Notes: generated by a model not told the origin, from the letters alone. Positions 8,678-57,431 are shown, counted from the stretch's first letter. The stretch is DNA of 64,000 nt from Deltaproteobacteria bacterium (GCA_041299015.1 JBFYWB010000084.1:17049-81048), one strand, 5' to 3'. A program made the numbers and translations.

Positions 8678-9442
8678 TTACCGGTGTGTCCATCCGGCCC
8701 GCATCACCAAGTCCGCCTGGCGATAACTGTCCATGTTGCCGATATCGAGCCGCTTGGCATCGATCTTGATTGCCGTCACCGGTTCTTTGCGGCACAGGTA
8801 ATCGATGAAATGGCCCGGTGCGTCGACCGGACCGGCGGCATCCAGAAAATCCGCCAACCTCTCGCGCGCGCTGGGCCGCAGAAAATAAAGCGGTGGGCAG
8901 AACCAGCCGGGCAGCGGGTTGTCCGGTTTTTCGAGCATTCCTAAAACCCGGTCGCTTACACCGAAAACCGGCACTCCAGTTCGTCTGTGCGCCTGCGGAT
9001 CGTGCTCCGCCAGCGCAATGAGGCAGTGAGTGGTGCCGCTCAAAAAATACCGCCACGGCTGGGCAATATGAAAGAGATAAATATTGTCTCCGGCGGAAAC
9101 CAGGTAGGCACCGGACCGGCCGGCCTGGCGCAAGACCAGCCGCAGGTCCGAGCAGGCACCGAGACGACTTTCTGCCCCGGTCGCGCCGTCATTGTGAAGT
9201 TCAAGGGTGATGTTTCGCGCCGACAGACGGGCAAGCCAGCCGCGGCTCCAGTCTTCGAAACGATCGATGTGTTTGGCGTTGGTGACGATATGGACTGCGT
9301 CGATTTCCGTCAGGTCGAGGACCTGTTCCATCAGGTAATCGAGCACGGGCCGGCCGGCGACGGGCAGCAACGGCTTGGGGAAATCACGGGTGAGGGGGTA
9401 CATGCGGGTGGCAAATCCGGCACACAGAAAGACCGCCAACAT
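8678..9442 (-). CDS. Sugar-phosphate nucleotidyltransferase family protein
   Basis: AGFATRMYPLT..PKPLLPV, AGDN and DIG motifs. Confidence 0.85.
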   Translation of the reverse strand: MLAVFLCAGFATRMYPLTRDFPKPLLPVAGRPVLDYLMEQVLDLTEIDAVHIVTNAKHIDRFEDWSRGWLARLSARNITLELHNDGATGAESRLGACSDLRLVLRQAGRSGAYLVSAGDNIYLFHIAQPWRYFLSGTTHCLIALAEHDPQAHRRTGVPVFGVSDRVLGMLEKPDNPLPGWFCPPLYFLRPSARERLADFLDAAGPVDAPGHFIDYLCRKEPVTAIKIDAKRLDIGNMDSYRQADLVMRAGWTHR

Positions 9443-9828
9443 CGGTGAGGTCCTCTCTCATCCTGTTTGACCTTGCCAGCGGTCGACTCTTGGCATTATT
9501 CCACGCAGCAGGATGCCCCGTCGTTTTTTTATAGGGCCTTCGGTCCGAATAAAGTGGAATTCGTTATGTTGGTTGCGATCCCCCGAATTTTCTTATTATG
9601 ATCTATCCCAGATCGCCGTCAGGTTCAAGATCCATTTCGTACTGATAGTGAAACGCTCAAAGCATATAACAATTATGTTTGTAACGCTCTAATTTATTTC
9701 ATTATTGTATATTCATAATTTTATTATTACACTTTTGTATATTCATTCCGCCACGATGTTTTTGGGACCATCAAATTTAAAAGCATTATTTCATAGGGTT
9801 ATTCCGAATACGCCACTGGCGCGCCATG

Positions 9829-9864: not shown

Positions 9865-11400
9865 ATGGACCTGCTATTGCGAAAAAACGAAGAACTCTCC
9901 GCCATCTTGGAGGTCAGCTGCGTGCTGACGGCCTCCTTCGACCTGGAGAAAAACCTGGCGGCGGCCATGGAAATCCTCTCCTCGCACTTGGAGATGCAGC
10001 GCGGATGTGTTTTCCTCCTGGACCCGGTTTCCAGGAAACTTCGGATTGTCGCGGCCCACGGACTATCACGCCAGGCCATCCGCCGCGGTAAATACCGCAT
10101 CGGCGAAGGAATCGTGGGCCAGGTGATTGCATCCGGCGAGCCGATGTTTGTCCCCAACATCGGGGATGAACCCAAATTTTTGAACAAGACGGACTCGCGG
10201 CTCCAGAAGAGCGGGGTGTCGTTTCTGTGCATGCCGATCGCCCTGGATGGCGCGATCCTGGGCGTCATCAGCGTCGATCGAATTTACATGGTCGAGCACG
10301 GCAACGTTGACGATGACCTGCGTGTGCTTCGTATCATCGCCTCCCTCATCGCCCAGTTTGTGAAGCTCTGGGAACTTTTCATCAAAGCAGAAAACGAGTG
10401 CGGCGTGTTGCGGTCTCAACTGACGGAAAAATTCAGCCTTCCCAACATCGTGGGAGAGTCACGGCCCCTGCAACAGGTTCTAAAGAGCGTTAAAAAAGTA
10501 GCCGCCACCGACACCACGGTCATTCTACTCGGTGAAAGCGGAACCGGCAAGGAGCTCATCGCCCAAACGCTTCACTATCAGAGTCACCGGGCCAAGGGCC
10601 AGTTCGTTCCCGTCAATCTGGCGGCCCTGCCGGAAAACCTGATCGAAGTCGAGCTGTTTGGTGTCGAAAAGGGAGCTTACACCGGGGCAACCGCTCGGCG
10701 CATCGGCCGTTTCGAACATGCCGACAGGGGCACCCTGTTCTTGGACGAAATTGGCGAACTGCCCCTGGCCCTGCAGGTCAAACTGTTGCGGGTGCTCCAG
10801 GAGAAAACCTTCGAGCGCATCGGCTCCTCTCGCCCGATTCATGTTGACACCCGGGTCGTCGCAGCCACCCACCGCAACCTCATTGACGAAGTCAGGCGAG
10901 GGCATTTCAGGGAAGACCTGTATTGGCGGTTGAACGTCGTTCCGATCGTACTGCCGCCGCTGAGGGAGAGAATCACGGACATACCGCCTCTGCTGAACCA
11001 CTACCTCGAAAAGTTTAACCGTACTCACGACCGCAAGGTTCGTTTCGAAGCGAAAACAATTGACGTTCTTTCGGCCTACCCCTGGCCGGGCAACGTTCGC
11101 GAACTGGCCAACACGGTTGAACGGCTCGTGATCATGACCGAATCCAGCTCGCTCACCCCTTTCGATCTGCCGCTTGCCATTACGAGCGCCGGAACCAACA
11201 TCGCACCCACCGCTTGCGACAGCGAGGCCGACCTGACCGGATTGAACAGCGAGGTCGCAGTGCTCGAACGGCGGCGCATCATTCAGGCCCTGAAAACAAG
11301 TGATCGCATCCAGCAAAGAGCCGCCAGGACGCTTGGGATCAGTCCCCGCCAACTCGGTTACCGCATAAAGAAATACAACATCGACCTGCGAAACTTATAG
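9865..11400 (+). CDS. nifA: Sigma-54 activator NifA (GAF-AAA+-HTH)
   Basis: N-terminal GAF domain, [15 protein letters not shown] (GAFTGA-like), [17 protein letters not shown]-terminal HTH; directly upstream of nifH. Confidence 0.85.
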
Positions 11401-11548: not shown

Positions 11549-12445
<897 letters not shown>

Positions 12446-12481: not shown

Positions 12482-12844
12482 ATGAAAATGATTATGATCC
12501 GTTCCATCGTCCGTCCCGAAAAGGTTGACAACGTGCTGGCGGCCCTCATGGAGGCCGGATTCCCCGGCGTGACCAAAATGTCCGTGGTGGGACGCGGTAA
12601 GCAGCGCGGCATCAAGATCGGGGAGATCACCTACGACGAGATTCCAAAGGAAATGCTGCTCACCGTGGTCAAAAACAACGACAAGGAGTTCGCCATTCGA
12701 ACCATTATCAAAGCCGCCCGCACCGGGGAAAAGGGTGCCTTCGGTGACGGTAGGATCTTCGTCGTGCCAGTAGAAGAGACTTACACCATCAGCTCCGGCA
12801 TCAAAGAGACCGCCGACGGCAAGACAGAAGAGGTGAAGATATGA
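12482..12844 (+). CDS. nifI1: PII-family nitrogenase regulator NifI1
   Basis: PII fold (IVRPEK, GRGKQRG, GDGRIFV); lies between nifH and nifD. Confidence 0.9.
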   Translation: MKMIMIRSIVRPEKVDNVLAALMEAGFPGVTKMSVVGRGKQRGIKIGEITYDEIPKEMLLTVVKNNDKEFAIRTIIKAARTGEKGAFGDGRIFVVPVEETYTISSGIKETADGKTEEVKI

Positions 12845-13221
12845 AAGAGCTGATGGCCATCGTACGCATGAACATGATGAACAAAACCAAGCGCGCACTG
12901 GCCGATGCCGGACTGGGGTCCGTTACCGCCCGGGATGCACTGGGGCGCGGCAAAGGCATCGTCGACTTGCAGCTGCTAAAGGGTGCCGAACGCGGTTATG
13001 AAGAAGCTATTGCCCAGTTGGGCCAGAGCCAGCGGCTCATCCCCAAGCGCGCCTTGCTGATAGTCGTCAACGACGAACTGGTGGAAAAAGCCGTCAAGAC
13101 AATCATCAGGACCAATCGCACCGGCAAATCGGGTGATGGCATGATTGTCGTGATGCCCTGTCGGGAGGCTGTCCGGGTGCGCACCGGGGAGCGAGGAGAG
13201 GACACGCTGGATGACGGCTGA
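12841..13221 (+). CDS. nifI2: PII-family nitrogenase regulator NifI2
   Basis: MKELMAIVRMNMMNKTK, long T-loop, GKSGDG; ATGA overlap with nifI1. Confidence 0.9.
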   Translation: MKELMAIVRMNMMNKTKRALADAGLGSVTARDALGRGKGIVDLQLLKGAERGYEEAIAQLGQSQRLIPKRALLIVVNDELVEKAVKTIIRTNRTGKSGDGMIVVMPCREAVRVRTGERGEDTLDDG

Positions 13222-13280: not shown

Positions 13281-14945
13281 ATGGTCATGCCCGCAGACGA
13301 TAATCCGACAAAAGAGGTCATGCTGGACAATCGCGACCCTGAAAAGGTTAAAGCCCAGTTGCTGGCCAAATACCCGCCCAAAGTGGCCCGAAAACGCACC
13401 AAGCAGATCGTGATCAACACGGTCGATCCTGACGGCAAGGTGCCGGTGATCAGCTCCAATGTCCGCACGGTGCCCGGCCTCATGGGGCAGCGCGGATGCT
13501 GCTATGCCGGCTGTAAAGGCGTTGTCCTGGGCCCCACGCGGGACATCATCAACATCACTCACGGTCCCATTGGCTGCGGCTTTTACAGCTGGCTGACCCG
13601 CCGCAATCAGACCGACCCGGACAGCAGCGCCGACGGTCATAACTTCATGCCCTATTGCTTCTCCACGGACATGCAGGATGAAGAGATTATCTTCGGCGGC
13701 GAGAAGAAGCTCAAGCAGGCCATCCAGGAAGCCTACGACAATTTCAAACCCAAGGCCATCGCCGTATTTTCCACCTGTCCGGTGGGTCTCATCGGTGATG
13801 ACGTCCACGCGGTCTGCCGTGAGATGAAGGCCAAACTGGGCATCAACATTTTCGGTTTCTCCTGCGAAGGGTACAAGGGCGTCAGCCAGAGCGCGGGTCA
13901 CCACATCGCCAATAACGGCATCTTCAAACACGTGGTGGGCCTAGACGACACCATCAAGGAGGGCAAGTACCGCATCAATCTGCTGGGCGAGTACAACATC
14001 GGTGGCGACGCTTTTGAAATAGAGCGGCTGTTCGAGCTTTGCGGCGTCACCCTCGTTGCTTCATACAGCGGTAACTCCAGCATCGATGCCTTCGCCAACT
14101 CCCACACCGCCGACCTGAATCTGATCATGTGCCACCGCTCCATCAACTACGTGGCCGAGATGATGCAGACCAAATTCGGCGTGCCCTGGATAAAGGTCAA
14201 TTTCATCGGTGCGGCGGCCACGGCCAAATCCCTGCGTAAGATTGCCCAATACTTCGACGAGAAAGAGCTTACGGACAGAGTGGAAGCGGTCATCGCCGAA
14301 GAGATGCCGGCCATCGAGGCCTCATGCGCTGCGGTGCGCCCCCGCACCGAAGGCAAGCGCGCCATGCTGTTCGTGGGCGGCTCCCGCGCCCATCACTACC
14401 AGGAGCTGTTTGTCGAATTGGGAATGAAGACGCTTTCCGCCGGCTATGAGTTCGGTCACCGCGACGATTATGAAGGCCGCAAGGTGCTGCAGGACGTCAA
14501 GGTGGATGCGGACAGCCGCAACATCGAAGAACTTGAAATCACTCCGGACCCGGAACGCTTCAATCCTCGGCTGAGCGACGCCAAAAAGAAGTCACTGGAG
14601 GCGAAGGGTCTGCGGTTCGGCGAATACGACGGCATGATGCCCGAAATGTCCGAAGGCTCCATGGTGATCGACGATCTGAGTCAGTATGAAACCGATCAGC
14701 TTATCAAAATATTTAAACCCGACATTTTCTGCGCCGGCATCAAGGAAAAATATACCGTGCAAAAACACGGCATCCCCTTGAAGCAGTTGCACAACTACGA
14801 CTACGGGGGACCCTATGCCGGTTTCAAGGGGGCCATCAATTTTTACAATGAGATTGACCGCATGGTCAGCAGCCGGGTGTGGCGGTACATGCGTGCGCCC
14901 TGGCAGGAGCACCCCGAGCTGTCCGCCACCTATGCCTGGGAGTAG
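13281..14945 (+). CDS. nifD: Nitrogenase MoFe protein alpha chain (group II type with insertion)
   Basis: P-cluster Cys motifs CCYAGC, HGPIGC, STCP; SQSAGHH; FeMoco ligands CHRS and QLH; YEFGH Mo-type motif followed by a ~50 aa insertion. Confidence 0.97.
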   Translation: MVMPADDNPTKEVMLDNRDPEKVKAQLLAKYPPKVARKRTKQIVINTVDPDGKVPVISSNVRTVPGLMGQRGCCYAGCKGVVLGPTRDIINITHGPIGCGFYSWLTRRNQTDPDSSADGHNFMPYCFSTDMQDEEIIFGGEKKLKQAIQEAYDNFKPKAIAVFSTCPVGLIGDDVHAVCREMKAKLGINIFGFSCEGYKGVSQSAGHHIANNGIFKHVVGLDDTIKEGKYRINLLGEYNIGGDAFEIERLFELCGVTLVASYSGNSSIDAFANSHTADLNLIMCHRSINYVAEMMQTKFGVPWIKVNFIGAAATAKSLRKIAQYFDEKELTDRVEAVIAEEMPAIEASCAAVRPRTEGKRAMLFVGGSRAHHYQELFVELGMKTLSAGYEFGHRDDYEGRKVLQDVKVDADSRNIEELEITPDPERFNPRLSDAKKKSLEAKGLRFGEYDGMMPEMSEGSMVIDDLSQYETDQLIKIFKPDIFCAGIKEKYTVQKHGIPLKQLHNYDYGGPYAGFKGAINFYNEIDRMVSSRVWRYMRAPWQEHPELSATYAWE

Positions 14946-15018
14946 TGGATGGAACCATCCAGCGTTGCCCGTCGTCGATAATCTCTACACCGAACGAATG
15001 CAGGAGACAAAAAAACAA

Positions 15019-16398
15019 ATGTTACTAAGACATACCCCCACCGAAATCAAGGAACGCAGCGCCCTGACCGTCAATCCGGCCAAAACCTGCCAGCCCATCG
15101 GGGCCATGTACGCAGCCCTGGGTGTCCACGGTTGCCTGCCCCACAGCCATGGCTCCCAGGGCTGCTACGCCTACCATCGCAGCGCCCTGACCCGCCATTT
15201 CAAGGAGCCGGTGGTAGCTGCCACCAGCGCCTTCACAGAAGGGGCTTCGGTGTTCGGCGGCCAGGCCAACCTGGTGCAAGCGATCGACAACATCTTCGCA
15301 GTGTACAACCCCCAGGTGATTGCCGTGCACACCACTTGCCTGTCGGAAACCATTGGTGACGACGTTCCGCAGATCGTCGCCAAGGCCAAGGCGGACGGCA
15401 AGGTGCCCGAGGGAAAATTCGTCTTTCATGCCAACACGCCCAGCTACGTGGGGTCCCACGTCACCGGGTTCGCCAGCATGACCAAGGCCATGGTGGATTA
15501 CTTTGCCGAATCCAACGGTCACAAAGAAAAAACGATCAACCTGATCCCCGGCTACGTGGAACCGTCGGACATGACTGAAATCAGGCGCATCGCCGACCTC
15601 ATGGGTATTGCGACCATTATGTTCCCGGACACCTCCAGGGTGCTCAACGGACCACTGACCGGCAAATACAAGATGTTTCCCGAGGGCGGTGTCACCATCG
15701 ATGAGCTGAAGAAAAGCGGCAGCAGTGCAGGCACCATCGCTCTCGGCCGGATCGCCTCCATGCCGGCGGCCCGTGCGCTAGACGCCAAGTGCAAGGTGCC
15801 CTGTGAAATCCTGGGCCTGCCGTTGGGGCTGCACGGCACCGACACCTACGTGGACACCCTGCGCCGCATGGCCGGCGTGAGCGTTCCCGATGCGCTGAAC
15901 CTGGAGCGCGGCCAGCTGGTGGACGCGATATCCGACTGGCACCAGTACCTGTACGGCAAGCGTATGGCCATTGTCGGCGACCCGGACCAGGTCCTGGCCC
16001 TGACCCGCTTTCTGGTTTCGCTGGACATGCGGCCGGTGCACATCGTCACCGGCAGCAAGGCCGGCAAGAAGTATGAGAAATCCCTGCGGGAAGCCGTGTC
16101 CGAAATCCCCGAAGCGGTGAATATCAAAGTGCCCGGCGACATGCTGCTCTTCCACCAGTGGGTAAAGAACGACCCGGTGGACCTGATCATCGGCAACACT
16201 TACGCCAAATATATCGCCAAGGATGAAGACCTACCGCTGGTTCGCCACGGTTTTCCCATCTACGACCGCTTGGGTCACAGCTACTTCTCCACCATGGGTT
16301 ACCGCGGCGCACTGCGCCTGCTGGAAAAACTGCTGGATGCCATTTTAGACCGCAAGGACCGCGATGCCGACGATATCACCATGGAACTGGTGATGTAA
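15019..16398 (+). CDS. nifK: Nitrogenase MoFe protein beta chain
   Basis: NPAKTCQPIGA, HGSQGC, TTCLSETIGDD, TPSYVGSH; AGGAG RBS and ATG 15019. Confidence 0.97.
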   Translation: MLLRHTPTEIKERSALTVNPAKTCQPIGAMYAALGVHGCLPHSHGSQGCYAYHRSALTRHFKEPVVAATSAFTEGASVFGGQANLVQAIDNIFAVYNPQVIAVHTTCLSETIGDDVPQIVAKAKADGKVPEGKFVFHANTPSYVGSHVTGFASMTKAMVDYFAESNGHKEKTINLIPGYVEPSDMTEIRRIADLMGIATIMFPDTSRVLNGPLTGKYKMFPEGGVTIDELKKSGSSAGTIALGRIASMPAARALDAKCKVPCEILGLPLGLHGTDTYVDTLRRMAGVSVPDALNLERGQLVDAISDWHQYLYGKRMAIVGDPDQVLALTRFLVSLDMRPVHIVTGSKAGKKYEKSLREAVSEIPEAVNIKVPGDMLLFHQWVKNDPVDLIIGNTYAKYIAKDEDLPLVRHGFPIYDRLGHSYFSTMGYRGALRLLEKLLDAILDRKDRDADDITMELVM

Positions 16399-16490: not shown

Positions 16491-17876
16491 ATGCCCTCGA
16501 TCCCCATCCTGAAAGAACGCCGGTCCCAGATCCACCGCAAGGGCAGCGAGCCTTTCGAAATGACCTGCGGCAAGCACAGCCTGGCCGGTTCGGTAAGCCA
16601 GCGGGCCTGCGTGTTCTGCGGTTCACGCGTGGTGCTGTATCCCATCGCCGATGCCCTGCACCTGATCCATGGACCTATCGGCTGCGCGGCATACACCTGG
16701 GATATTCGCGGGGCCCTTTCTTCCGGGCCTGAACTGCACCGGATGAGTTTCTCCACCGACCTGCGTGAAAGGGATGTCATTTTCGGCGGAGAGAAAAAAC
16801 TGGCCGCCGCCTTGGGCGAACTGATTGACACCTACCAGCCCAAGGCCGCCTTCGTTTACTCTACCTGCATCGTCGGCATCATCGGCGACGATGTGGCCGC
16901 CGTCTGCCGGAAAGTGGAAGAAGAGAAGGGAATTCCGGTGCTGCCGGTTCATTCGGAAGGGTTCAAGGGAACCAAGAAAGACGGCTACAAAGCCGCCTGC
17001 GACGCCCTGTTCAAACTGGTGGGCACCGGCAGCACGGCCGATGTCTCACCGATCAGCATCAACATCCTGGGCGAGTTCAACATCGGCGGGGAAGCCTGGT
17101 TGATCAAGAAATACTACGAGCAGATGGGTGTCCGGGTGGTCTCCGTTATGACCGGGGACGGCCGTGTGGACCAGGTGCGCCGCAGCCACGCCGCCGCCCT
17201 CAACGTGGTGCAGTGCTCCGGAGCCCTGACCTATCTGGCCGACATGATGAAGGAGGCCTACGGCATTCCTTACATCCGTGCCTCCTATTTCGGCATCGAC
17301 GACGTGGCCAAGGCATTATACGACGTGGCCGATCATTTCAGCGCCTATCCGGAGATTAAGGACCGCACCCGCGACATCGTTCGCAACGAGGTGGAAGCGA
17401 TCATGCCCGAGCTCAACCTTATCAAGGCCGATCTCTCCGGCAAGCGGGCGGCCATCTATGTGGGCGGGGCCTTCAAGGCGTTCTCCCTGATCAGGGCCCT
17501 GCGCTACCTGGGGATGAAGGTGGTGCTGGTAGGCTCCCAGACCGGCAACCAAGGCGATTATGCCACCTTGCGGGAGATGTGCGATGACGGCACGATCATT
17601 TTAGATGATGCCAACCCACTGGAATTGTCCAAATATATCATCGAAAAGCAGGCCGACCTGTTCATCGGCGGCGTCAAAGAGCGTCCCATCGCCTTCAAAA
17701 TGGGTATCGGCTTTTGTGACCATAACCACGAACGCAAGATACCTCTGGCCGGTTTCGCCGGCATGCTGCAGTTCGCCCGCGAGGTGCACACCTCGGTCAC
17801 CAGTCCGGTGTGGCAGTTTGTGCCTGCCCGCACGGCGGCATGCCATAAGCTGTCTCAAAAAGAGGAGACCCCATGA
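16491..17876 (+). CDS. nifE: FeMo-co scaffold NifE
   Basis: SQRACVFCGSRVVL, HGPIGCAAYTWD, STCIVGIIGDD, VQCS. Confidence 0.96.
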   Translation: MPSIPILKERRSQIHRKGSEPFEMTCGKHSLAGSVSQRACVFCGSRVVLYPIADALHLIHGPIGCAAYTWDIRGALSSGPELHRMSFSTDLRERDVIFGGEKKLAAALGELIDTYQPKAAFVYSTCIVGIIGDDVAAVCRKVEEEKGIPVLPVHSEGFKGTKKDGYKAACDALFKLVGTGSTADVSPISINILGEFNIGGEAWLIKKYYEQMGVRVVSVMTGDGRVDQVRRSHAAALNVVQCSGALTYLADMMKEAYGIPYIRASYFGIDDVAKALYDVADHFSAYPEIKDRTRDIVRNEVEAIMPELNLIKADLSGKRAAIYVGGAFKAFSLIRALRYLGMKVVLVGSQTGNQGDYATLREMCDDGTIILDDANPLELSKYIIEKQADLFIGGVKERPIAFKMGIGFCDHNHERKIPLAGFAGMLQFAREVHTSVTSPVWQFVPARTAACHKLSQKEETP

Positions 17877-19246
17877 AAACCGCCGTTCGAAAAGATAATT
17901 TCAGCGCCACCCAGAATGCCTGCAACCTGTGTGCGCCGCTAGGTGCGGCCCTCGTTTTCAAGGGGATTGCCAGTGCCGTGCCCCTGTTGCATGGTTCCCA
18001 AGGCTGCTCCACCTATATCCGCAGATATATGATCAGCCATTTCAAGGAACCGCTGGACATCGCCTGTTCGAATTTTGCCGAAGATACGGCCATCTTCGGT
18101 GGCGGGGCCAACCTGAAACTGGCCATCGACAACATCCGCCGCCAGTATAGTCCCGATCTGATCGGGGTGGCCACTACCTGCCTGTCGGAAACCATCGGCG
18201 ACGACGTGTCCATGTTCATCAAAGCCTATCAAAATGGCTGCCGGGACGAAGCATTGCCGGCGCTGGTGCACGTCTCAACACCCAGCTACCAGGGGACCCA
18301 CATGCAGGGGTTTCACGGTGCCGTACGCGCTCTGGTTGTCGCCCTGGCTGAATCCATGGCACCCGGCGAACGACCGTCGGTAAACCTGTTCCCCGGCATG
18401 GTGTCGCCGGCGGACCTGCGCCACCTGAAAGCGATCCTGGATGCCTTTCAACTGGACGGCGTCCTGGTGCCCGATTACAGCGATACCCTCAATGGTCCCT
18501 TGTGGACCGAATACCAGAGCATTCCGGAAGGCGGTACCAGCGTGGAGGGGCTGCGCCGCACAGGGGGTGCCGTCGCCAGCATCGAGTGCGGTCTGGTGCT
18601 GGCCGTAGAAAAAGAGACCGCTGGCACCTGGCTGCAGACGCATTTCGGCGTGCCGCTGCATCGCTTGGGTCTTCCCATCGGCATCCGGCAATCCGACCAA
18701 TTCTTCGAATCGCTTTCCGTGATCAGCGGCCGTCAGATTCCGGAAAAATATGCCGCCCAGCGCGGCCGCCTGCTGGATGCCATGGTCGACGGTCACAAAC
18801 ACCTCAACGGGGTGCACGCCGCCCTGTTCGGCGAAGAAGACCTGGTGGCCGGGCTGGCCGCTTTCTGCGGGGAACTGGGCATCATCCCCGTCCTGTGCGC
18901 CACCGGCGGGGGCAACGGGCGCTTTGCGCAAACCGTTCAGCGCGTGGTGCCGGAACGCTACCATTCCCGGATGCAGATCCTGGAAGACGCGGATTTCGTC
19001 ACTATCGAAAAGGCCCTCGAGAATATCGGTGTGGATCTGCTTATCGGTCACAGCAAGGGCTACACCATGTCTCGACGGCTGAAACGGCCCTTGATCCGGG
19101 TAGGGTTCCCCGTGCACGACCGCGTCGATGGCAGCCGTCTGCTGCACCTGGGTTATCGCGGCGCCCAGCAACTGTTCGATAGGATTGCCAACACATTGAT
19201 TGAAGTGAAACAGAATCGGTCCGATGTCGGCTACACTTACATGTAA
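17873..19246 (+). CDS. nifN: FeMo-co scaffold NifN
   Basis: CNLCAPLGA, HGSQGCSTYIRRY, TTCLSETIGDD; ATGA overlap with nifE. Confidence 0.95.
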   Translation: MKTAVRKDNFSATQNACNLCAPLGAALVFKGIASAVPLLHGSQGCSTYIRRYMISHFKEPLDIACSNFAEDTAIFGGGANLKLAIDNIRRQYSPDLIGVATTCLSETIGDDVSMFIKAYQNGCRDEALPALVHVSTPSYQGTHMQGFHGAVRALVVALAESMAPGERPSVNLFPGMVSPADLRHLKAILDAFQLDGVLVPDYSDTLNGPLWTEYQSIPEGGTSVEGLRRTGGAVASIECGLVLAVEKETAGTWLQTHFGVPLHRLGLPIGIRQSDQFFESLSVISGRQIPEKYAAQRGRLLDAMVDGHKHLNGVHAALFGEEDLVAGLAAFCGELGIIPVLCATGGGNGRFAQTVQRVVPERYHSRMQILEDADFVTIEKALENIGVDLLIGHSKGYTMSRRLKRPLIRVGFPVHDRVDGSRLLHLGYRGAQQLFDRIANTLIEVKQNRSDVGYTYM

Positions 19247-19287
19247 TGCCGCTCATGAAGCGATATGCAGAAAACTGAATAGCCACC

Positions 19288-19336
19288 GAGAAACCGGAAG
19301 CCAAGAACCAAGAACGTGAAACGGAAAACCAGGAAC
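19288..19336 (+). repeat. Seven degenerate heptamers (nnRRAAC-like) in the nifN-nifB spacer
   Basis: GAGAAAC CGGAAGC CAAGAAC CAAGAAC GTGAAAC GGAAAAC CAGGAAC. Confidence 0.75.
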
Positions 19337-19341
19337 CAACC

Positions 19342-20616
19342 ATGAATTTAGACAACCATCCCTGCTTCAATCCCAGCGCCTGCACTTCCTTCGGAAGAGT
19401 CCACCTGCCGGTGGCCCCCCGATGCAACATCCAGTGCAAATTCTGCAACCGCAAATTCGACTGCGTCAACGAAACGCGCCCCGGGGTTACCAGCGCCGTG
19501 CTCTCTCCGGGCCAGGCCATGGTCTATTTAGAAGAGGTGTTTGCCCAAAAGGGAAATATCTCCGTGGTGGGCATCGCCGGCCCGGGAGATCCGTTTGCCA
19601 ATCCCGAAGAAACCCTGGAAACCCTTTCCCGCGTGCGATCCCGGTATCCGGAGGTCATGCTGTGCGTGGCCACCAATGGTCTCAACCTGGCCCTCTATCT
19701 CGATCAGCTCGAACGGCTGAAAGTGAGTCATATCACCGTGACGGTCAATGCCATAGATCCGGTCATCGGGGCGCGGATTTACTCCTGGATGCGCGTGGGC
19801 AAACGGGTGGTGCGCGCTGAGGAAGGGGCGGCAGTTCTTTTGGAGCGGCAGTTGGAGGCGATCAAAGGTCTCAAGGAGCGAGGCATCGTGGTCAAGGTCA
19901 ATAGCATCATCCTGCCCGGTATCAATGAGGGCCATATCGAGGCCGTGGCGCGCCGCGTGGCCGACCTGGGAGTGGACCTGTTCAACGCCATGCCCTACTA
20001 CCCAAATTCCGGCTCCGAGTTCGAGCATCTGACCGAACCAAACAAGACGTCCGTCGAAACGATCCGTCAACAAGCGGGCGTGCATGTCAAACAGATGCGT
20101 CATTGCACGCGCTGCCGTGCCGACGCGGTCGGTCTTCTGGGAGAAGCCCCTGATGAGGGGTTGATGAACACTCTCTCCGCCTGCAAGCGGCTGGAAGTGA
20201 ACACACCCCGGCTCGGCCGGGTATCGCCGCGCCCCTGCGTGGCCGTGGCCAGCATGGAAGGGGTGCTGGTCAACCAACATCTGGGAGAAGCCGAAAAGCT
20301 CCTGGTGTATGGTGAGAAGGAAGGTCGGGTCCAACTGCTGGAGGCCCGTGCTATGCCGGCTCAAGGCGGCGGCAGGCAACGCTGGCAGGCGATGGCCAAA
20401 ACGTTGTCGGACTGCAGCACGCTTCTGGTCAGCGGGGTGGGGGCCAACCCGCTGAAGGTGCTTTCGGCGGCCGGTATCGAAGTGTTGGAGATCGAAGGGC
20501 TCATCGAAGAAGCCGTGCGGGCTGTTTTTGCCGGTGAGACGCTGAATCACATGGTCAAACGTACCCTCACGGCCTGCAGGGCGTCGTGCGGGGGCACCGG
20601 CATGGGCTGTGGATAG
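19342..20616 (+). CDS. nifB: Radical SAM FeMo-co biosynthesis protein NifB with C-terminal NifX-like domain
   Basis: HPC, CNIQCKFC, ETRPG, AGPGDP, CTRCRADA; NQHLG NifX-like domain. Confidence 0.97.
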   Translation: MNLDNHPCFNPSACTSFGRVHLPVAPRCNIQCKFCNRKFDCVNETRPGVTSAVLSPGQAMVYLEEVFAQKGNISVVGIAGPGDPFANPEETLETLSRVRSRYPEVMLCVATNGLNLALYLDQLERLKVSHITVTVNAIDPVIGARIYSWMRVGKRVVRAEEGAAVLLERQLEAIKGLKERGIVVKVNSIILPGINEGHIEAVARRVADLGVDLFNAMPYYPNSGSEFEHLTEPNKTSVETIRQQAGVHVKQMRHCTRCRADAVGLLGEAPDEGLMNTLSACKRLEVNTPRLGRVSPRPCVAVASMEGVLVNQHLGEAEKLLVYGEKEGRVQLLEARAMPAQGGGRQRWQAMAKTLSDCSTLLVSGVGANPLKVLSAAGIEVLEIEGLIEEAVRAVFAGETLNHMVKRTLTACRASCGGTGMGCG

Positions 20617-20620
20617 AACG

Positions 20621-20657
20621 GGGAATTAAGGGATTCGGGAATTGAGGGATTGAAATT
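20621..20657 (+). repeat. Octamer-period repeat in the nifB-fdx spacer
   Basis: GGGAATTA AGGGATTC GGGAATTG AGGGATTG AAATT. Confidence 0.75.
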
Positions 20658-20735
20658 ATAAAGAAGAGGTGCGGCAGGGTTTATCCTAATTCTGAATGGC
20701 GGCCTTGACACCAAAATCAAAGAGGAGTGCTACAA

Positions 20736-21041
20736 ATGGAAAAACCGGAACATCATATTTTCGTCTGTGCCAGTTTTCGTGCCGACGGCAACCCCAAGGG
20801 CGTCTGCCGTAAAAAAGGGTCGGTGGCGCTTTTGCCTTACATTGAAAACGAGATTCTCGACCGTGGTCTGAACGCCCAGATCACCAGCACCGGCTGCATG
20901 AAGGCCTGCGACTTCGGCCCCGTGATGGTTATCCAGCCCAAGGGACTCTGGTACGGCAATGTGGATAGCGAAGATGCCGTGAATGCAATCCTGGACGCCC
21001 TGGAGGATGGGGAAGTTATCGAAAATCGCCTGATCACATAG
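20736..21041 (+). CDS. Thioredoxin-like [2Fe-2S] ferredoxin
   Basis: HIFVC...C...GCMKACDFGP four-Cys pattern; GAGGAG RBS; follows nifB. Confidence 0.9.
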   Translation: MEKPEHHIFVCASFRADGNPKGVCRKKGSVALLPYIENEILDRGLNAQITSTGCMKACDFGPVMVIQPKGLWYGNVDSEDAVNAILDALEDGEVIENRLIT

Positions 21042-21094
21042 CGGACGTCTATCCCGCAGGACAGCGGAAAAAGAAAGATATAAGGAAGACCACC

Positions 21095-21257
21095 ATGCAG
21101 ATTCAATTGGTGGCTCTGCTCAAAGAAAAAGGGAATCAGCCTGCCGTCTGCTGAAGCCGTGAAGCTGCGGGCTCGGATTCATGAAGTCGCCCGCCCCAAA
21201 AAAGCCGCCCTCACGAAAGCCGAAGTGCTCGATCTCTACAATCGGAGGGCGAGATAA
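21095..21257 (+). pseudogene. nifV: Probable nifV (homocitrate synthase) relic: short N-terminal stub joined to the C-terminal helix region, with a 1-nt frameshift
   Basis: AAGGAAG RBS, ATG 21095 gives MQIQLVALLKEKG; +1 shift at AAAAAGGG gives ISLPSAEAVKLRARIHEVARPKKAALTKAEVLDLYNRRAR*, resembling NifV C-termini; sits where nifV is expected. Confidence 0.65.
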
Positions 21258-21263
21258 CCGGTC

Positions 21264-21578
21264 TTATTTCTTGACGATCTGCGTTTCGATCTGGTCGGCC
21301 AAATTCAGGGCGGCATTCATGGCGTCGTTGACCTTGAACAGCATCACTTTCAGCGTTTTCAGCGATGCCGGCGTCGCCACGATCTTTTCCTTGCCGGCAA
21401 GCAAACTTTGGAGTCCCGCGGCGCGTTCGGCCAATCCGTTCAGGTTCGAGGCAAAGGCGCCGATTTCCTCAGCCCATTTTTTCCGTTCTTCTTCCGGGAA
21501 AACGACCCGATTGTTCCCCATGCCTTCTTCAAGAATATCGATGCCATAATCCTCTGCGTCTGCAATGATTTCGTACAT
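21264..21578 (-). CDS. Hypothetical helical protein (104 aa)
   Basis: GAGGAAGG RBS upstream, normal codon pattern, no competing gene. Confidence 0.7.
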   Translation of the reverse strand: MYEIIADAEDYGIDILEEGMGNNRVVFPEEERKKWAEEIGAFASNLNGLAERAAGLQSLLAGKEKIVATPASLKTLKVMLFKVNDAMNAALNLADQIETQIVKK

Positions 21579-21925
21579 GGTTAATTGTCCTTCCTCAAAT
21601 TGATCTTTTTCATTTTTATCTGAATTTATCTGGTCCCATCTATCCAGACAAGTGTTTTTTATCCTCAGAGGTCGGTATTATTCGAAATTCCGCATGTCCT
21701 TTCGTATTCAGGATGGGGCCGGTCGGGGTCATTTGACATTTATGGGCAAATGCGGAGCGTTGCTAATTTAAACCTCACAATGGTATAATATTTATTTCGT
21801 TTTAATTGTCGACAATCGGTGGGTTTTTCGCGACCTCAAGCGGCTCAAGAATATCCATATTTTCACCCGGTAGTGATTTTGTTTGTGATAATACCATTGC
21901 ACCTGTGAACACGAGAGGGAAAAAC

Positions 21926-22960
21926 ATGAAGGAGCTTCACTTTACCCCCACCAACGGCCCCGTCGATGACGCCATCGAGCGTCTGATGAATATCGCAGGT
22001 GGGATTCAGCAGCGCGACATTATCCGTGAAATGATCCTGGCGTCGCTCAAAGCCGGCCAGGAAGACGACCGCAAAGCTGATTTGAAATTGATGAACACGT
22101 CCCTTAAAGAGATGCGGTTCACCTCCAAGGTATTCGGACCTTATCGCCATAAAAAGAAGGTGACCGTGTTCGGATCGGCACGGATAAAACCCGAGGAACC
22201 CCTGTATGCGATGGCACGGGAACTAGGCCGCGAACTGGTCGCTGCGAACTACATGGTGATAACAGGCGGCGGCCCCGGGATCATGCAGGCGGTTAACGAA
22301 GGCGCGGGGCCTGAGCATTCATTCGGTGTCAATATTCGCCTGCCTTTCGAACAGAAACCCAATCCGGTCATCGACGGCAACCCCCGCCACATCATGTACA
22401 AATACTTTTTCAACCGCAAGGTGGCCTTCTTGAAGGAGGCCCATGCCGTCACCCTTTTCCCGGGCGGCTTCGGAACCCTGGATGAGGCCATGGAAAGCAT
22501 CACGCTCGTGCAAACCGGCAAACGGTACTCCCTGCCGCTCATCCTTATTGATGAACCGGGCGGAAGATACTGGTCCCAGTGCCTGGAGTTTTTCGAAAGA
22601 GAGTTGCTGAAACGCCACCTCATCAGCGCGTCCGACTTCAATCATATCGAGCGGGTCGATTCGGTCTCAAAAGCCGTCGAGCGGATCAACCATTTCTATC
22701 GCCGATATCACAGCCTGCGGTATGTCAACGGCCGCCTGGTCATTCGCCTGAATTCACCCATCGAACCATGGATTGTCGCAGACTTGATGCATCAATTCGC
22801 CGGTATTTTGCAGCCCGGCGGCAAAATCGTACTCTCGGAAGCCCTGCCCGAGGAGAAAGATGAACCGGATATCGCTCACCTCCAGCGACTGGTGATCGAC
22901 TTCAAGCAGGGTGATTTCGGCAGGTTGAGGAAACTCATCGACAGTCTCAACGATTCTTGA
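21926..22960 (+). CDS. LOG-family (TIGR00730-like) nucleotide phosphoribohydrolase, long form
   Basis: VTVFGSAR, ITGGGPGIM, PGGFGTLDE motifs; GAGGG RBS. Confidence 0.88.
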   Translation: MKELHFTPTNGPVDDAIERLMNIAGGIQQRDIIREMILASLKAGQEDDRKADLKLMNTSLKEMRFTSKVFGPYRHKKKVTVFGSARIKPEEPLYAMARELGRELVAANYMVITGGGPGIMQAVNEGAGPEHSFGVNIRLPFEQKPNPVIDGNPRHIMYKYFFNRKVAFLKEAHAVTLFPGGFGTLDEAMESITLVQTGKRYSLPLILIDEPGGRYWSQCLEFFERELLKRHLISASDFNHIERVDSVSKAVERINHFYRRYHSLRYVNGRLVIRLNSPIEPWIVADLMHQFAGILQPGGKIVLSEALPEEKDEPDIAHLQRLVIDFKQGDFGRLRKLIDSLNDS

Positions 22961-31319: not shown

Positions 31320-31573
31320 TTTGAACGGACTCCAAATCGATAATGTCAGGGGGTACACGTCGATACGCGCCTTATTCACCTACTTAGCAGCAGAATTCGG
31401 GTACGGCAAGAACATTTAGACGCCATACTCGGGCCGGCCCGGCTTTAAGAAAAATTTGTGATTGGCATCTCGACCTGCTATGATAATAGACAATTGAACC
31501 GTCGTCCGGCCATCGATGATATCGATGATCCGCGGCAAGGGACGGACTGTGCAGCGTCTGGGTGGAGAAGAAC

Positions 31574-32347
31574 ATGAGGTCCTTTCACCCCTGGAAGCCT
31601 TTAGTTGTCGCCGTTTTTATCCTGCTCTTAACTGCGCTGACGCCGCTCGACAGCGCAATGGCGGTCGACCCGTCGGAGTCTCTGGTCACTGCCGCCGAAA
31701 TGGGCCTGCAGGATGACGTGCGCCGACTGCTCGACGCGGGTGTCGATCCCGACGGCCGGAACTCATCCGGATGGACGGCCCTGATGCAAGCGTCTATGAA
31801 TGGTCACCCGGAGATCGTGCGGTTGCTGATCGCCCGCGGTGCCGATGCCAACACCAGCGGAAACGCCGGATGGCAGGCATTGATGCTGGCGGCCCAGTTC
31901 GGCCACACGGACATCGTGCGCATTTTACTGCCGCAGAGGGCCGAGGTGAATGCGGCCAGTCGAAACGGTTCCACGGCGTTGATGGTTGCTGCGGGAAATG
32001 GCCATCACGAAATTGTGCAAGATCTCCTGCAAAAAGGGGCCGATGTCTCTCTGACGGACTATATGGGCCGGACCGCGCTCATGTTTGCCGCCACTGACGG
32101 CCATGACCGAATTGTCCGCCAACTGATTAAAAGCCGATCCGATGTCAACCTGATCGACAAGGACGGCAACACAGCTTTGATGCTGGCCGTCAGTGGCGGC
32201 CACGCAGACGTCGTCCGTTCGCTGCTGGTTGCCTGCCCAGACCTCAAACACAATGACGGCAAGGGAAGAACCGCCCTGCAATTGGCCGAGGAGAAACAGG
32301 TTCCGCGCATCATCGAGCTGCTGAAGACGCCGCCGCCATGCAAATAG
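31574..32347 (+). CDS. Secreted ankyrin-repeat protein (~7 repeats)
   Basis: Signal peptide ending SAMA; repeated G.TALM.AA..GH..IV..LL units. Confidence 0.9.
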   Translation: MRSFHPWKPLVVAVFILLLTALTPLDSAMAVDPSESLVTAAEMGLQDDVRRLLDAGVDPDGRNSSGWTALMQASMNGHPEIVRLLIARGADANTSGNAGWQALMLAAQFGHTDIVRILLPQRAEVNAASRNGSTALMVAAGNGHHEIVQDLLQKGADVSLTDYMGRTALMFAATDGHDRIVRQLIKSRSDVNLIDKDGNTALMLAVSGGHADVVRSLLVACPDLKHNDGKGRTALQLAEEKQVPRIIELLKTPPPCK

Positions 32348-54661: not shown

Positions 54662-55861
54662 TCAATCCAGAACCTCCACCGACGGGATGTTGAAAAGCCT
54701 TTTTAAGACTTCATCGAAATAGTCGGGCAGGTATCGGTACCAGAGCTTGATCGGCGTCTGCTCCGATTCCCCCCGTTTCGAGGCCGGCAGCATGAAGAGG
54801 TACCCCATGAGATACTCGATGTTGCGGGCCAATTGGCCGTTGTATTGCTGCTCCAGGCGCTGGCGGATGATCCGGTCTTCGTGCATGCAGCGACCGATCT
54901 CGCTCTCCAGCATCTCCTGGTAGTCGGAGAGAATGACCTCCAGATTGACGCTGTCTTCTCCGGAGAGGATGAACTCCCTGAAAGCGCGGTTGGCGGCAGC
55001 AGGGGCGGCCCCCCGCATCCGCATCACATTGATGAGGCGCTCGCCCAGTGGAATTGAAGCCATTTGTTCCCGGTCTGGCCGCAGGCGCACGATGAGGTTG
55101 ACCGCATTGTATCTGCCCGTGTGCGGCTCGATTTCGATCACCTCGCACCCCCGCATATTGCCGATCAGGTCCATGAACCGACTGCGGTCGGTTTGTTCAA
55201 CGATCGCCTTGAGACCGGCCACGTCCTGGATAACCAGACCGTCGGCATCTCGAATCGGCTGCCCCTGCCTGAGGTCATCCAGCACGCGGCTCTCCGCTTT
55301 GAGAAATTCGGCGGTCATGTCTTCGGGCGGTGTGATCAAATGCTCGCGGGATATCCCTTTGAGCCGCGCACGGTCTTCCGCAAGGTCCTCCGCCCGGCGT
55401 TTTATGGTCGCGTACAGTCTGTCGATGATACGTCGGGCACTTTTTTCGGCCAACCGGCGGACCCGCTTGATGCGGTTGGAGCCGATATAGCAGGATCCGT
55501 CCGGACCGCCGCTGAAAAACAGGGTACCGTGAAAAGGGGTTTCACGGTAATACAGCTCCGGACTGCAGCGGTAAGCGTTCAGGATTTCGTCCACCCGTGC
55601 GTTCCGGTAGGGGACATTGGTCACGATGACGTTTTTAAGATCGCCTTTGAGACAGACCTTGCGAACCTGGAGCGCATGCGGATGAAAGCGCTGGAAGATC
55701 TGCTCCGAGAAGGCGGCCAGATAACGAGACACATAGGCATTGTTGAAGTAGACCAATTGCGCAAGGTCATCCCCGTCCGTGCGTTGGGGGTTGCCGTACA
55801 TCCAGCGCTGGATCAAGTCCCGCAGGGCATCGCGGTGTAGATAGCTGCCGATGGTGATCAT
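54662..55861 (-). CDS. Hypothetical protein with a divergent RelA/SpoT synthetase-like core
   Basis: RIKRVRRLAEK, DVAGLKAI, YNAVNL, LEVIL and SEIGRCMH occur in RSH motif order; ATG 55861 lies 10 bp after the upstream stop. Confidence 0.7.
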   Translation of the reverse strand: MITIGSYLHRDALRDLIQRWMYGNPQRTDGDDLAQLVYFNNAYVSRYLAAFSEQIFQRFHPHALQVRKVCLKGDLKNVIVTNVPYRNARVDEILNAYRCSPELYYRETPFHGTLFFSGGPDGSCYIGSNRIKRVRRLAEKSARRIIDRLYATIKRRAEDLAEDRARLKGISREHLITPPEDMTAEFLKAESRVLDDLRQGQPIRDADGLVIQDVAGLKAIVEQTDRSRFMDLIGNMRGCEVIEIEPHTGRYNAVNLIVRLRPDREQMASIPLGERLINVMRMRGAAPAAANRAFREFILSGEDSVNLEVILSDYQEMLESEIGRCMHEDRIIRQRLEQQYNGQLARNIEYLMGYLFMLPASKRGESEQTPIKLWYRYLPDYFDEVLKRLFNIPSVEVLD

Positions 55862-55871
55862 CTTTTCAGTC

Positions 55872-57380
55872 TCAGGTGGAAAAGGATGGACGTTTCGGTT
55901 GACGTCTCTCACTTGCCTGACGCGACCACTCATAAAGCGCTATGGCTGCGGCCGCGGCGGCATTCAGGGACTCGACCGCCGCACGAATCGGGATGCGCCG
56001 GGCCGTCCGGCGCCAGGCCGCCGGCAGACCGGGCCCCTCGAGACCGATCAGCAGTCCGAAAGACGGAGGAAATACCGTGGCGCGGATGTCGTCACCCTCG
56101 GCCGAGAGCGCTATAATCGGCAGGTCGGCCGGCAATTCTTTCAGGGACGGTCCGTGCACAAGCCGGGTGGACATCACCGTTGCGCCTGATGCCCGGAGTG
56201 ACTTGGGATGAAAAGGGTGGGCGCTTTCGGCCAGCAGGATCACCTGACCGACACCGAAGGCGGCCGCCGAACGGATGACGGCCCCGACGTTTTCAGGGTC
56301 CTGAAAGGGGACCAGCAGATTGCAGCCTTCCGCAAATCCGTCACTCGCCCGCCAGGATGGGAACGGTGGGACCCTAAGAAGAAGCAGGGGGGCGTGTGTG
56401 CCAAAAACATCGAGCATCTCGAACAATCGCGGGGCCAATTGATACCAGGCGAGTCGATCGGGGGCGTCGGCCGGCGGCGGTTGCCGATCATCCGAACTGA
56501 TCCAGGCCTCGCAATGAGCGGGATGATTTTTGAGCGCTTCGGCGATCGGCTTGGATCCGGCAAACAGGGCCCGGCCCCATTTTTTGATCCCGCGACCGCC
56601 GAGCAGTTTTTTCATCTCCTTGAAAATGGTGTTGCTTTCGCTTGCGATCATTTTCACCGGGAAACGCACCCCGGCGTCGGCGTTGGGAATGCTGCGCGGC
56701 TGGTCGATACGCTCCATGACGACGAGGCGGCGCCGATGGCGGGTGTGGGGAATGATGTAAGCGCGATCCTCGACCGGCTTGTAGACCGACAGCCACCGGT
56801 TGCGGACCTCATCCAACTCCGCTTCGCAGTGCGGACCCTTCATGAAGATCACCCTGCCGCCGGGTGCCAGGCACCCGCGGACCCGCTCCAATGTCTTGGC
56901 CATGGTTTCCACGGCCCGGGTGATGACGCCGGCCACCGGTTCCTCAAAACCGGCGCCGATTTTCTTTTCGATAATGCGCACACCCTCCAGTTGCAGCCGA
57001 TCGACGACCGCGGCCAGGAAATCGACCCGCTTGCGGCGGCTTTCGGCCAGAAGGATCTCCAAATGCGGCTGATAGATCTTGAGGGGGATACCGGGCATGC
57101 CGGGACCGGTTCCCAGGTCCAGCAGGGGCGAGGGAAGTTGCATCAGGTCGGCGGGCAGGATCGAATCGACGTACAACTTTATGACCATGTTGTCGAAATT
57201 GTGCACCCGCGTCAGGTTGAGCTCCGGGTTGCTCTGCCGCAACATCCCGTGGTAAGTCCACAACTGTTGGACCTGCAGGGCCGACAAATGAATGCCGCAT
57301 CTGTCGAAGAGGGCCACCATCTTTTCCGGTCCGGGTGAGCCGATGCAGCCGGAAGAACTTTCTTGACTGGTTTGCTTCAT
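55872..57380 (-). CDS. rsmG: 16S rRNA m7G527 methyltransferase RsmG fused to a TrmH/SpoU methyltransferase
   Basis: NLTRV...H/Y.DS, LLDLGTGPGMPGIPL, ITRAV; then QDPENVGAVIRSAAAFG, GLEGPGL, VESLNA. Confidence 0.85.
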   Translation of the reverse strand: MKQTSQESSSGCIGSPGPEKMVALFDRCGIHLSALQVQQLWTYHGMLRQSNPELNLTRVHNFDNMVIKLYVDSILPADLMQLPSPLLDLGTGPGMPGIPLKIYQPHLEILLAESRRKRVDFLAAVVDRLQLEGVRIIEKKIGAGFEEPVAGVITRAVETMAKTLERVRGCLAPGGRVIFMKGPHCEAELDEVRNRWLSVYKPVEDRAYIIPHTRHRRRLVVMERIDQPRSIPNADAGVRFPVKMIASESNTIFKEMKKLLGGRGIKKWGRALFAGSKPIAEALKNHPAHCEAWISSDDRQPPPADAPDRLAWYQLAPRLFEMLDVFGTHAPLLLLRVPPFPSWRASDGFAEGCNLLVPFQDPENVGAVIRSAAAFGVGQVILLAESAHPFHPKSLRASGATVMSTRLVHGPSLKELPADLPIIALSAEGDDIRATVFPPSFGLLIGLEGPGLPAAWRRTARRIPIRAAVESLNAAAAAAIALYEWSRQASERRQPKRPSFST

Positions 57381-57431
57381 GGTATCGTGTGCGGTAGAAC
57401 AGGATTGCTGGTTATCGATTAAGGGATCCCC

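Follow-up and report, generated by a model that had tools for sequence, protein, structure and literature searches.

Loss of the linked nifV gene from an otherwise intact nif cluster in a deltaproteobacterial genome

Several described systems combine a nitrogenase with an altered or absent nifV gene. In Clostridium pasteurianum, nifV is split, and its two open reading frames, nifV-omega and nifV-alpha, together cover the whole enzyme. In Klebsiella pneumoniae, laboratory mutants of nifV with measured phenotypes carry a citrate-containing cofactor. Nodulating rhizobia without nifV, Mesorhizobium loti and others, obtain homocitrate from the FEN1 synthase of the host (PMC6934396, PMC5428708, PMC8073898). 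In the definition of Dos Santos et al. (2012, PMC3464626), nifHDKENB form the minimal nif set, and further nif genes, among them nifV, are variable across species.

The present locus lies in a window of 64 kb, by which the whole stretch of analyzed DNA is meant. Downstream of the nif genes, positions 21095-21257 contain a stub of about 160-162 bp that is made of the leftovers of three deleted genes: orfA, a GNAT acetyltransferase gene, and nifV. The linked nifV has been lost from an otherwise intact cluster, and the loss is shown for this linked copy. As in C. pasteurianum, the C-terminal part of NifV is found apart from the N-terminal part and beside a C. pasteurianum-like NifD; unlike in that species, the 64 kb contain no ORF for the N-terminal part or the TIM barrel, and the tail is without a start codon. 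The rhizobia share with the window a complete set of nitrogenase and FeMo-co assembly genes and no linked homocitrate synthase. They are, however, symbionts with demonstrated external homocitrate, whereas the window comes from a metagenomic member of Desulfobacterales with no known partner, a recent loss, and a stub still in place. The citrate cofactor of the Klebsiella mutants is the outcome that would be expected here if homocitrate were missing, but the window is known from its sequence alone. Ordinary pseudogene remnants left by deletional bias show the same successive deletions, out-of-frame joints, haplotype variation, and lack of a conserved ORF. The stub belongs to this group and shows no difference of substance from it.

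The nif cluster and its relatives

Ten genes, nifA, nifH, nifI1, nifI2, nifD, nifK, nifE, nifN, nifB, and fdx, are present at full length on the plus strand within 11 kb, and the nif genes align over their full length with the orthologues of L006 (Desulfosarcina alkanivorans PL12) and L008 (a Desulfobacteraceae MAG) at 83-95% protein identity. The cluster opens with a nifA-type sigma-54 activator gene (9865-11400; GAF, AAA+, and HTH_8 domains in Pfam), which matches the L005 orthologue from end to end at 86% identity. It is followed by nifH (11570-12445; Fer4_NifH 1-270 of 271, E 1e-126; 94% to D. alkanivorans), the true start of which may lie about 16 codons further in, and by the PII-type regulator genes nifI1 (12482-12844) and nifI2 (12841-13221), which match the NCBIfam P-II family and are 85-95% identical to their L006 and L008 orthologues. 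The nifD gene (13281-14945) is intact by Pfam, of the long C. pasteurianum-like type, and 90% identical to that of L006 over its full length. The nifK gene is placed at 14998-16398; its ORF is open from 14815, and homology starts near residue 64-69 (Pfam; tblastn residues 64/69-527, 91-92%). Intact nifE (16491-17876) and nifN (17873-19246) have Pfam matches and full-length matches of 83-93%, and intact nifB (19342-20616; radical SAM and NifX-like domains in Pfam) is 86-87% identical to the orthologues of D. alkanivorans and the MAGs; these nearest NifB sequences all belong to Desulfobacterales. The last gene, fdx (20736-21041), encodes a thioredoxin-like 2Fe-2S ferredoxin that is 85-88% identical to its orthologues and matches NCBIfam fdxn_Clost at E 3e-24, though its 85.5 bits fall short of the curated cutoff of 150. 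All six genes of the minimal set nifHDKENB thus have complete Pfam matches and full-length orthologues (tblastn 83-94%), and the earlier sequence-only reading had already taken them to be intact.

The best solved structure for NifD is 4WES chain A, the MoFe alpha chain of C. pasteurianum (E 6e-181, residues 21-544). A. vinelandii-type chains match the same protein over residues 19-398 only. Compared with C. pasteurianum NifD, the motifs CHRSINY, SQSAGHHIAN, GIKEKY, and LHNYDY are kept, which we take to contain the ligands of FeMo-co and the anchor of homocitrate. In A. vinelandii numbering, the ligands and the anchor of NifD comprise Cys275, His442, Gln191, His195, and Lys426 (PMC3464626).

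Downstream of the stub, a convergent gene of 104 aa occupies 21264-21578 on the minus strand. It is 92% identical to the L005 gene that lies 6 nt after the nifV stop, and it follows nifV in the intact relatives. No Pfam or NCBIfam family matched this gene, which is 87-92% conserved at the same position in L005 and L007. The next gene (21806-22960, plus strand) belongs to the LOG/TIGR00730 family by Pfam and NCBIfam, is 93% identical to the L005 gene, and serves as the downstream synteny anchor.

A gene-order table was compiled for more than 80 relatives, and nifV was counted in the 53 whose downstream flank extends for 4 kb or more. In 41 of these, nifB-fdx is followed by an intact nifV, in agreement with the arrangement noted earlier for many anaerobe clusters; the remaining 12, about a quarter, are without an intact linked nifV. 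The GNAT gene is kept in L010, L011, and L014, and nifV is absent within 10 kb. In L055 (3411-4173), nifV lies in four frame-shifted pieces, for which sequencing error is possible, and small scraps of nifV remain in L054 (15845-16614) and L057 (11642-11800).

The intact Desulfobacterales clusters of D. alkanivorans PL12 (NZ_AP021874, L006) and of the MAGs L005, L007, and L089 have the same order and orientation as the window from nifA/nifH to fdx, with 83-95% protein identity. In L005, L007, and L089, both flanks correspond to those of the window, including the downstream 104-aa and LOG-family genes and the 6-nt spacing after the nifV stop. The difference lies between fdx and the convergent gene: the intact clusters carry a full orfA (140-154 aa), GNAT gene (153-167 aa), and nifV (379-395 aa), whereas in the window 162 bp replace about 1.6-2.1 kb.

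Several of these neighboring genes have a wide distribution of their own. In many Desulfobacterales nif clusters, orfA is a conserved gene of 140-154 aa, with no Pfam family, between the nif ferredoxin gene and GNAT/nifV (L006 11846-12310; L007 4867-5313; L090 696-1118; L093 2179-2601). In most Desulfobacterales relatives, the GNAT gene directly precedes nifV, and the two often abut or overlap (L005 11703-12194; L006 12307-12810; the table covers most of L008-L082). GNAT and nifV look like a conserved pair.

Two further loci of the window may be recorded. An ORF of 751 aa on the minus strand (55872-58127) combines GidB (16S rRNA m7G methyltransferase) and SpoU methylase domains and overlaps the ORF 54662-55933; either a gene fusion or an ORF called too long could account for it. 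On the plus strand, 31562-32347 encodes a protein of 261 aa that consists almost entirely of ankyrin repeats and adjoins a peptide ABC transporter operon.

Composition of the stub at 21095-21257

Past the ferredoxin gene, an RBS (AAGGAAG, 21082-21088) precedes an ATG at 21095-21097. The frame of this ATG is an ORF of 19 codons that reads MQIQLVALLKEKGNQPAVC and ends at a TGA stop (21152-21154). In the +1 frame, no stop interrupts 21084-21254 ahead of a TAA (21255-21257), and the last 41 codons of this stretch read GISLPSAEAVKLRARIHEVARPKKAALTKAEVLDLYNRRAR. The only entry of the mechanical ORF list at the stub is a GTG-initiated ORF of 32 aa (21159-21257). The features from which the sequence-only reading set out, namely an RBS and ATG, an extra G, and 41 codons up to the TAA that were missed by the ORF track, are therefore all found in the sequence. 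The stub was then described as a nifV gene that had kept its own start and been deleted internally.

The identification of the 41-codon tail (21130-21257, plus strand, in the +1 frame relative to the ATG at 21095 and without a start codon of its own) as the end of nifV holds in comparisons by BLASTP, HMM, and blastn. In BLASTP, the tail is identical to the intact syntenic NifV of L005, a Desulfobacterales MAG, at 29 of 42 positions (69%; residues 348-389 of 391, E 7e-17). A NifV HMM was built from 37 full-length NifV-type proteins and run with filters off on 1886 six-frame fragments of the window; its single match in the 64 kb is 21084-21254, at profile positions 332-373 of 378 (E 1.4e-5). This E-value is somewhat circular, because the 37 members were picked by likeness to P0002, a fragment on contig L001 that is longer than the tail of the window, but the BLASTP and blastn comparisons do not depend on the profile. 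In blastn, window 21130-22953 is 88% identical to L005 13297-15121, a span that begins at nifV codon 350, crosses the convergent 104-aa gene, and reaches the LOG-family gene. The distance from the nifV stop to the end of the convergent gene is 6 nt in both, and the position of the tail, downstream of nifB-fdx and on the same strand, is the NifV slot of the relatives.

The protein search with the fragment returned two near-identical fragments: P0001, a hypothetical protein of 58 aa, and P0002, of 91 aa, annotated as NifV and carrying Pfam HCS_D2. On L001, where P0002 sits, the identical tail is preceded in frame by LLKDPATHQPFCPEDIGRNRCDFVIGTHSGTAAIRHLLLSQ and is contiguous with 40 more NifV codons (profile positions 292-331), so that the NifV HMM matches L001 at positions 292-373 (E 2e-26). 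In an exhaustive HMMER search, P0002 aligned at positions of about 295-380 of many proteins of about 375-390 aa; the best NCBIfam model was TIGR02660 nifV_homocitr in all 10 of 10 sampled P0002-matching proteins. The best solved structures for P0002 are the homocitrate synthases 6KTQ and 3IVS, at equivalent C-terminal positions. The repaired 53-aa peptide had no direct match in Pfam or NCBIfam, being too short for scans of this kind. Word-indexed searches with the 53-aa and 91-aa fragments returned only the two sister fragments from a lossy index that missed even the L005 NifV, and a metagenome scan with the 91-aa fragment returned only L089, with its intact, L005-like cluster, and did not recover L001-L004 themselves.

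The rest of the enzyme is gone from the window. The C-terminal HCS_D2 region of NifV (PF22617), which the longer L001 copy carries, is represented by the last 41 of about 82 residues. The NifV HMM, with filters off, aligned with no part of the window ahead of profile position 332; the HMGL-like TIM barrel motifs DTTLRDGEQ and HxH..D.G were absent from a six-frame motif scan; and no HMGL-like domain (PF00682) was found on the 39 ORFs scanned, which include every ORF of at least 300 aa. Nor does the tail belong to an uninterrupted reading frame of about 370-395 codons that opens with a start of its own, as in NifV. The loss of the catalytic TIM barrel, which had been proposed earlier, is borne out within the 64 kb.

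The head of the stub is of other origin. The RBS, the ATG, and codons 1-4 (MQIQ), at 21082-21106 on the plus strand, align as DNA, together with the sequence upstream of MQIQ, with the orfA starts of L006 (D. alkanivorans; ATGCAGATTCAACCCATT, MQIQPIPGW) and of L007. The segment 21107-21129 (plus strand) encodes LVALL, followed by an A-rich joint, and corresponds to a scrap of the GNAT N-terminus; its origin can be read from contigs L002-L004 and the GNAT of D. alkanivorans. These three contigs have the same nifN-nifB-fdx context and contain 131 extra bases between window positions 21107 and 21108. The extra bases translate to MQ(F/I)QSILEVGRQVASFAKQHVP... and, in another frame, to MDVTIRNALHADLEPLVALLKKKG. 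The former translation matches the C-terminal end of orfA (L007 5233-5295, 76%; L006 12224-12280); the latter shares 81% identity (E 3e-9) with the GNAT of D. alkanivorans over residues 15-35 of that protein, the gene for which lies between orfA and nifV and carries Pfam Acetyltransf_1. The GNAT fold for acetyl-CoA binding (PF00583) takes about 150 residues, and about 8 codons (LVALL...) are left in the window. The peptide MQFQSILEVGRQVASFAKQHVP of the sister contigs was also considered as an internal piece of NifV and was rejected: the NifV profile does not match it, and the C-terminal end of orfA does.

A history of successive deletions can be proposed from four haplotypes, from which both the order and the number of events are inferred. 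The ancestor would have had the order nifB-fdx-orfA-GNAT-nifV followed by the convergent 104-aa gene, an order still present in D. alkanivorans and many Desulfobacterales MAGs. One deletion, common to the window and L002-L004, would have brought GNAT codon ~24 and nifV codon ~350 together in different frames; 9-10 A-rich nucleotides at this joint can be assigned to neither gene. A second, in-frame deletion seen in L002-L004 would have removed the middle of orfA, and a third, of 131 bp and confined to the lineage of the window, would have joined orfA codon 4 to GNAT codon ~16. Left in place are the orfA RBS, ATG, and 4 codons, some 8 GNAT-derived codons, and the 41 codons at the end of nifV. 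The number of deletions was two at the least and probably three. The missing DNA amounts to 1.6 kb in comparison with L005 and about 2.1 kb in comparison with D. alkanivorans. No meaningful direct or inverted repeats or marks of mobile elements were found around the joint.

Alternatives to a relic of three genes

The description of the stub as an internally deleted nifV was right in that the tail derives from nifV and the barrel is gone, but the start and the RBS come from orfA, and nifV has been truncated from its 5' end along with the two genes upstream. On that view, the RBS, the ATG, and the 13 codons would belong to nifV itself, about 1 kb of its interior would be missing, and a frameshift of 1 nt would have been added. 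The RBS and ATG do occupy the slot after fdx that is taken directly by nifV in L061, L062, and L095, and LVALLKEKG bears a superficial likeness to the L..L...G stretch ahead of GISL in NifV. An intact relative should then have a NifV that begins MQIQLVALLKEKG (MQIQLVALL...), and the MQIQ start occurs in none of the NifV proteins examined. On L001, where true NifV lies upstream of GISL (AAIRHLLLSQ), there is no DNA homology with the window before 21130, and the profile alignment starts no earlier than position 332. The alignment of MQIQ and its upstream DNA with orfA starts, and the sister contigs in which the missing 131 bp are the end of orfA and the start of GNAT, assign the 13 codons to those two genes instead: MQIQ is the orfA start and LVALL the GNAT N-terminus. 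The extra G is part of the out-of-frame GNAT/nifV joint common to L002-L004, and the loss is not of about 1 kb within one gene but of about 1.6-2.1 kb across three. A nifV start of its own at this position is therefore very improbable. An artefact of assembly or sequencing, in which a collapsed or chimeric join would hide an intact nifV, deserves even less credence. The source is apparently a metagenome-derived assembly, and a homopolymer run (AAAGAAAAAGGG) lies at the joint. The junction is, however, exact in L085 (GCA_041298905.1), and its first 200 nt are present in L086 (GCA_041298935.1, at a contig end) and L088 (GCA_041298825.1), all of which encode the exact NifB of the window. Three NCBI MAG assemblies, independent and deposited separately, thus agree on the junction, and mis-assembly, named by the sequence-only reading as a refuting outcome, does not account for it. 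Moreover, the identical GNAT/nifV joint is found in three JGI contigs from other samples (L002-L004) that differ by about 5% in the nif genes, and the tail was found on a full NifV in no protein of a collection of 5.8 billion searched through a lossy index.

A function of the stub as a 19-aa peptide, a stand-alone NifV C-terminal helix comparable to a part of the split C. pasteurianum nifV, a regulatory RNA, or a terminator is likewise scarcely credible. The retention of a good RBS and ATG, the 99% conservation of the tail among haplotypes, and a JGI gene call of 58 aa on a sister allele might speak for it. The conservation of the tail is, however, that of the whole downstream flank; the reading frames differ among haplotypes, with the start of the 58-aa ORF inside the 131 bp that are absent from the window; and there is no gene for an N-terminal NifV partner in the 64 kb. 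No terminator-like site was found at the stub, the folding of its RNA was not unusual (z 0.65), and no Rfam family matched anywhere in the window. At most, the product of the stub would be a junk peptide of 19 aa, since the NifV tail has neither a start codon nor a catalytic domain. The stretch 21095-21257 is, with high confidence, a non-functional relic of successive deletions and not a gene. Its proper annotation is that of a nifV pseudogene remnant joined to fragments of orfA and the GNAT gene, and neither that of a short gene nor that of an "internally deleted nifV".

Homocitrate supply and the fate of the cluster

Variation among the haplotypes bears on the age and the consequences of the loss. 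The stub differs from the L001 copy at 1 of 128 nt, whereas the left flank is 7% different from L001. Between the window and the sister contigs, the nif genes (17424-21107) differ by 3-7% in DNA, and the stub with the downstream 104-aa and LOG genes (21108-22750) by 1-2%. The dS of nifN is 0.15, in comparison with a neutral divergence of about 1% in the stub between deletion-bearing haplotypes. This unequal divergence implies recombination, and the pattern suggests that the right-hand segment may have undergone recent recombination or a sweep. Because recombination mixed the histories of the segments, the timing of selection relative to the deletion is blurred. Between the window and L002, both of which bear the deletion, dN/dS is 0.09 in the tail of nifE, 0.18 in nifN, 0.33 in nifB, and 1.7 in fdx, the last on 7 differences. 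The first two values indicate purifying selection on nifE and nifN, which may predate the loss of nifV.

A further haplotype has gone beyond the loss of nifV. In L001 (JGI Ga0643518_0157467, 1-2150), the NTP-transferase flank (window 9094-9461) is joined directly to nifV codon ~310. The contig matches window 9094-9461 and 21130-22754 and lacks everything from nifA through the greater part of nifV, a stretch that takes up about 11.7 kb in the window; this loss of the whole cluster is seen on a single contig of 2.1 kb. The deletion in L001 is independent, because its end point in nifV differs from that of the window.

Two readings of the physiological outcome must be weighed. The one that we favor, with moderate confidence, is that the loss of the linked nifV was neutral: another homocitrate source, such as a second nifV or a paralogue, exists in the cell, and the nitrogenase is normal. 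The ten other nif genes have stayed intact over 11 kb while a 0.2-kb stub suffered further deletions; the dN/dS values of 0.09-0.18 in nifE and nifN, the retained NifD motifs, with residue roles as given in PMC3464626, the 12 of 53 related clusters without an intact linked nifV, and the position of nifV outside the minimal set (PMC3464626) are all consistent with a supply from elsewhere. Against it, no second NifV- or HMGL-like sequence was found within the 64-kb window by Pfam, motif scan, or NifV HMM, and the selection in the nif genes may be older than the deletion. Four NCBI-sourced candidates among the matches to the L005 NifV (P0224, P0183, P0243, and P0258) sit in the canonical nifB-fdx-...-nifV order and all come from other assemblies. 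The second reading, that nifV was not replaced and the cluster is beginning to decay, with fixation impaired (for example by a citrate cofactor) or homocitrate obtained from other organisms, is possible but can be held only tentatively. The deletion is recent, as the near identity of the stub to its L001 copy indicates; the L001 haplotype, which lost the cluster from nifA to nifV codon ~310, fits an ongoing loss; and the nifB dN/dS of 0.33 and the nifV scraps or frame-shifted nifV of L054, L055, and L057 point in the same direction. Against this reading, no inactivating mutation was found in the other nif genes of two haplotypes about 5% apart, and the deletion allele occurs in several samples and assemblies.

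The loss of the linked nifV is ordinary deletional gene decay, recurring in this order of bacteria; its kind is already known, and the present case is a new instance. The haplotypes form a natural series of nif decay in one population of sulfate reducers, from intact relatives, through the loss of nifV with a relic of 293 bp and a trimmed relic of 162 bp, to the loss of the whole cluster. An unlikely but consequential extension is that a natural Desulfobacterales population keeps a selected Mo-nitrogenase cluster without a homocitrate synthase of its own, relying on cross-fed homocitrate or on a cofactor with another organic acid, and that nifV-less and cluster-less haplotypes coexist in it. 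If the genome proved to have no other homocitrate synthase, this population would be a candidate for testing the acquisition of homocitrate by free-living anaerobes.
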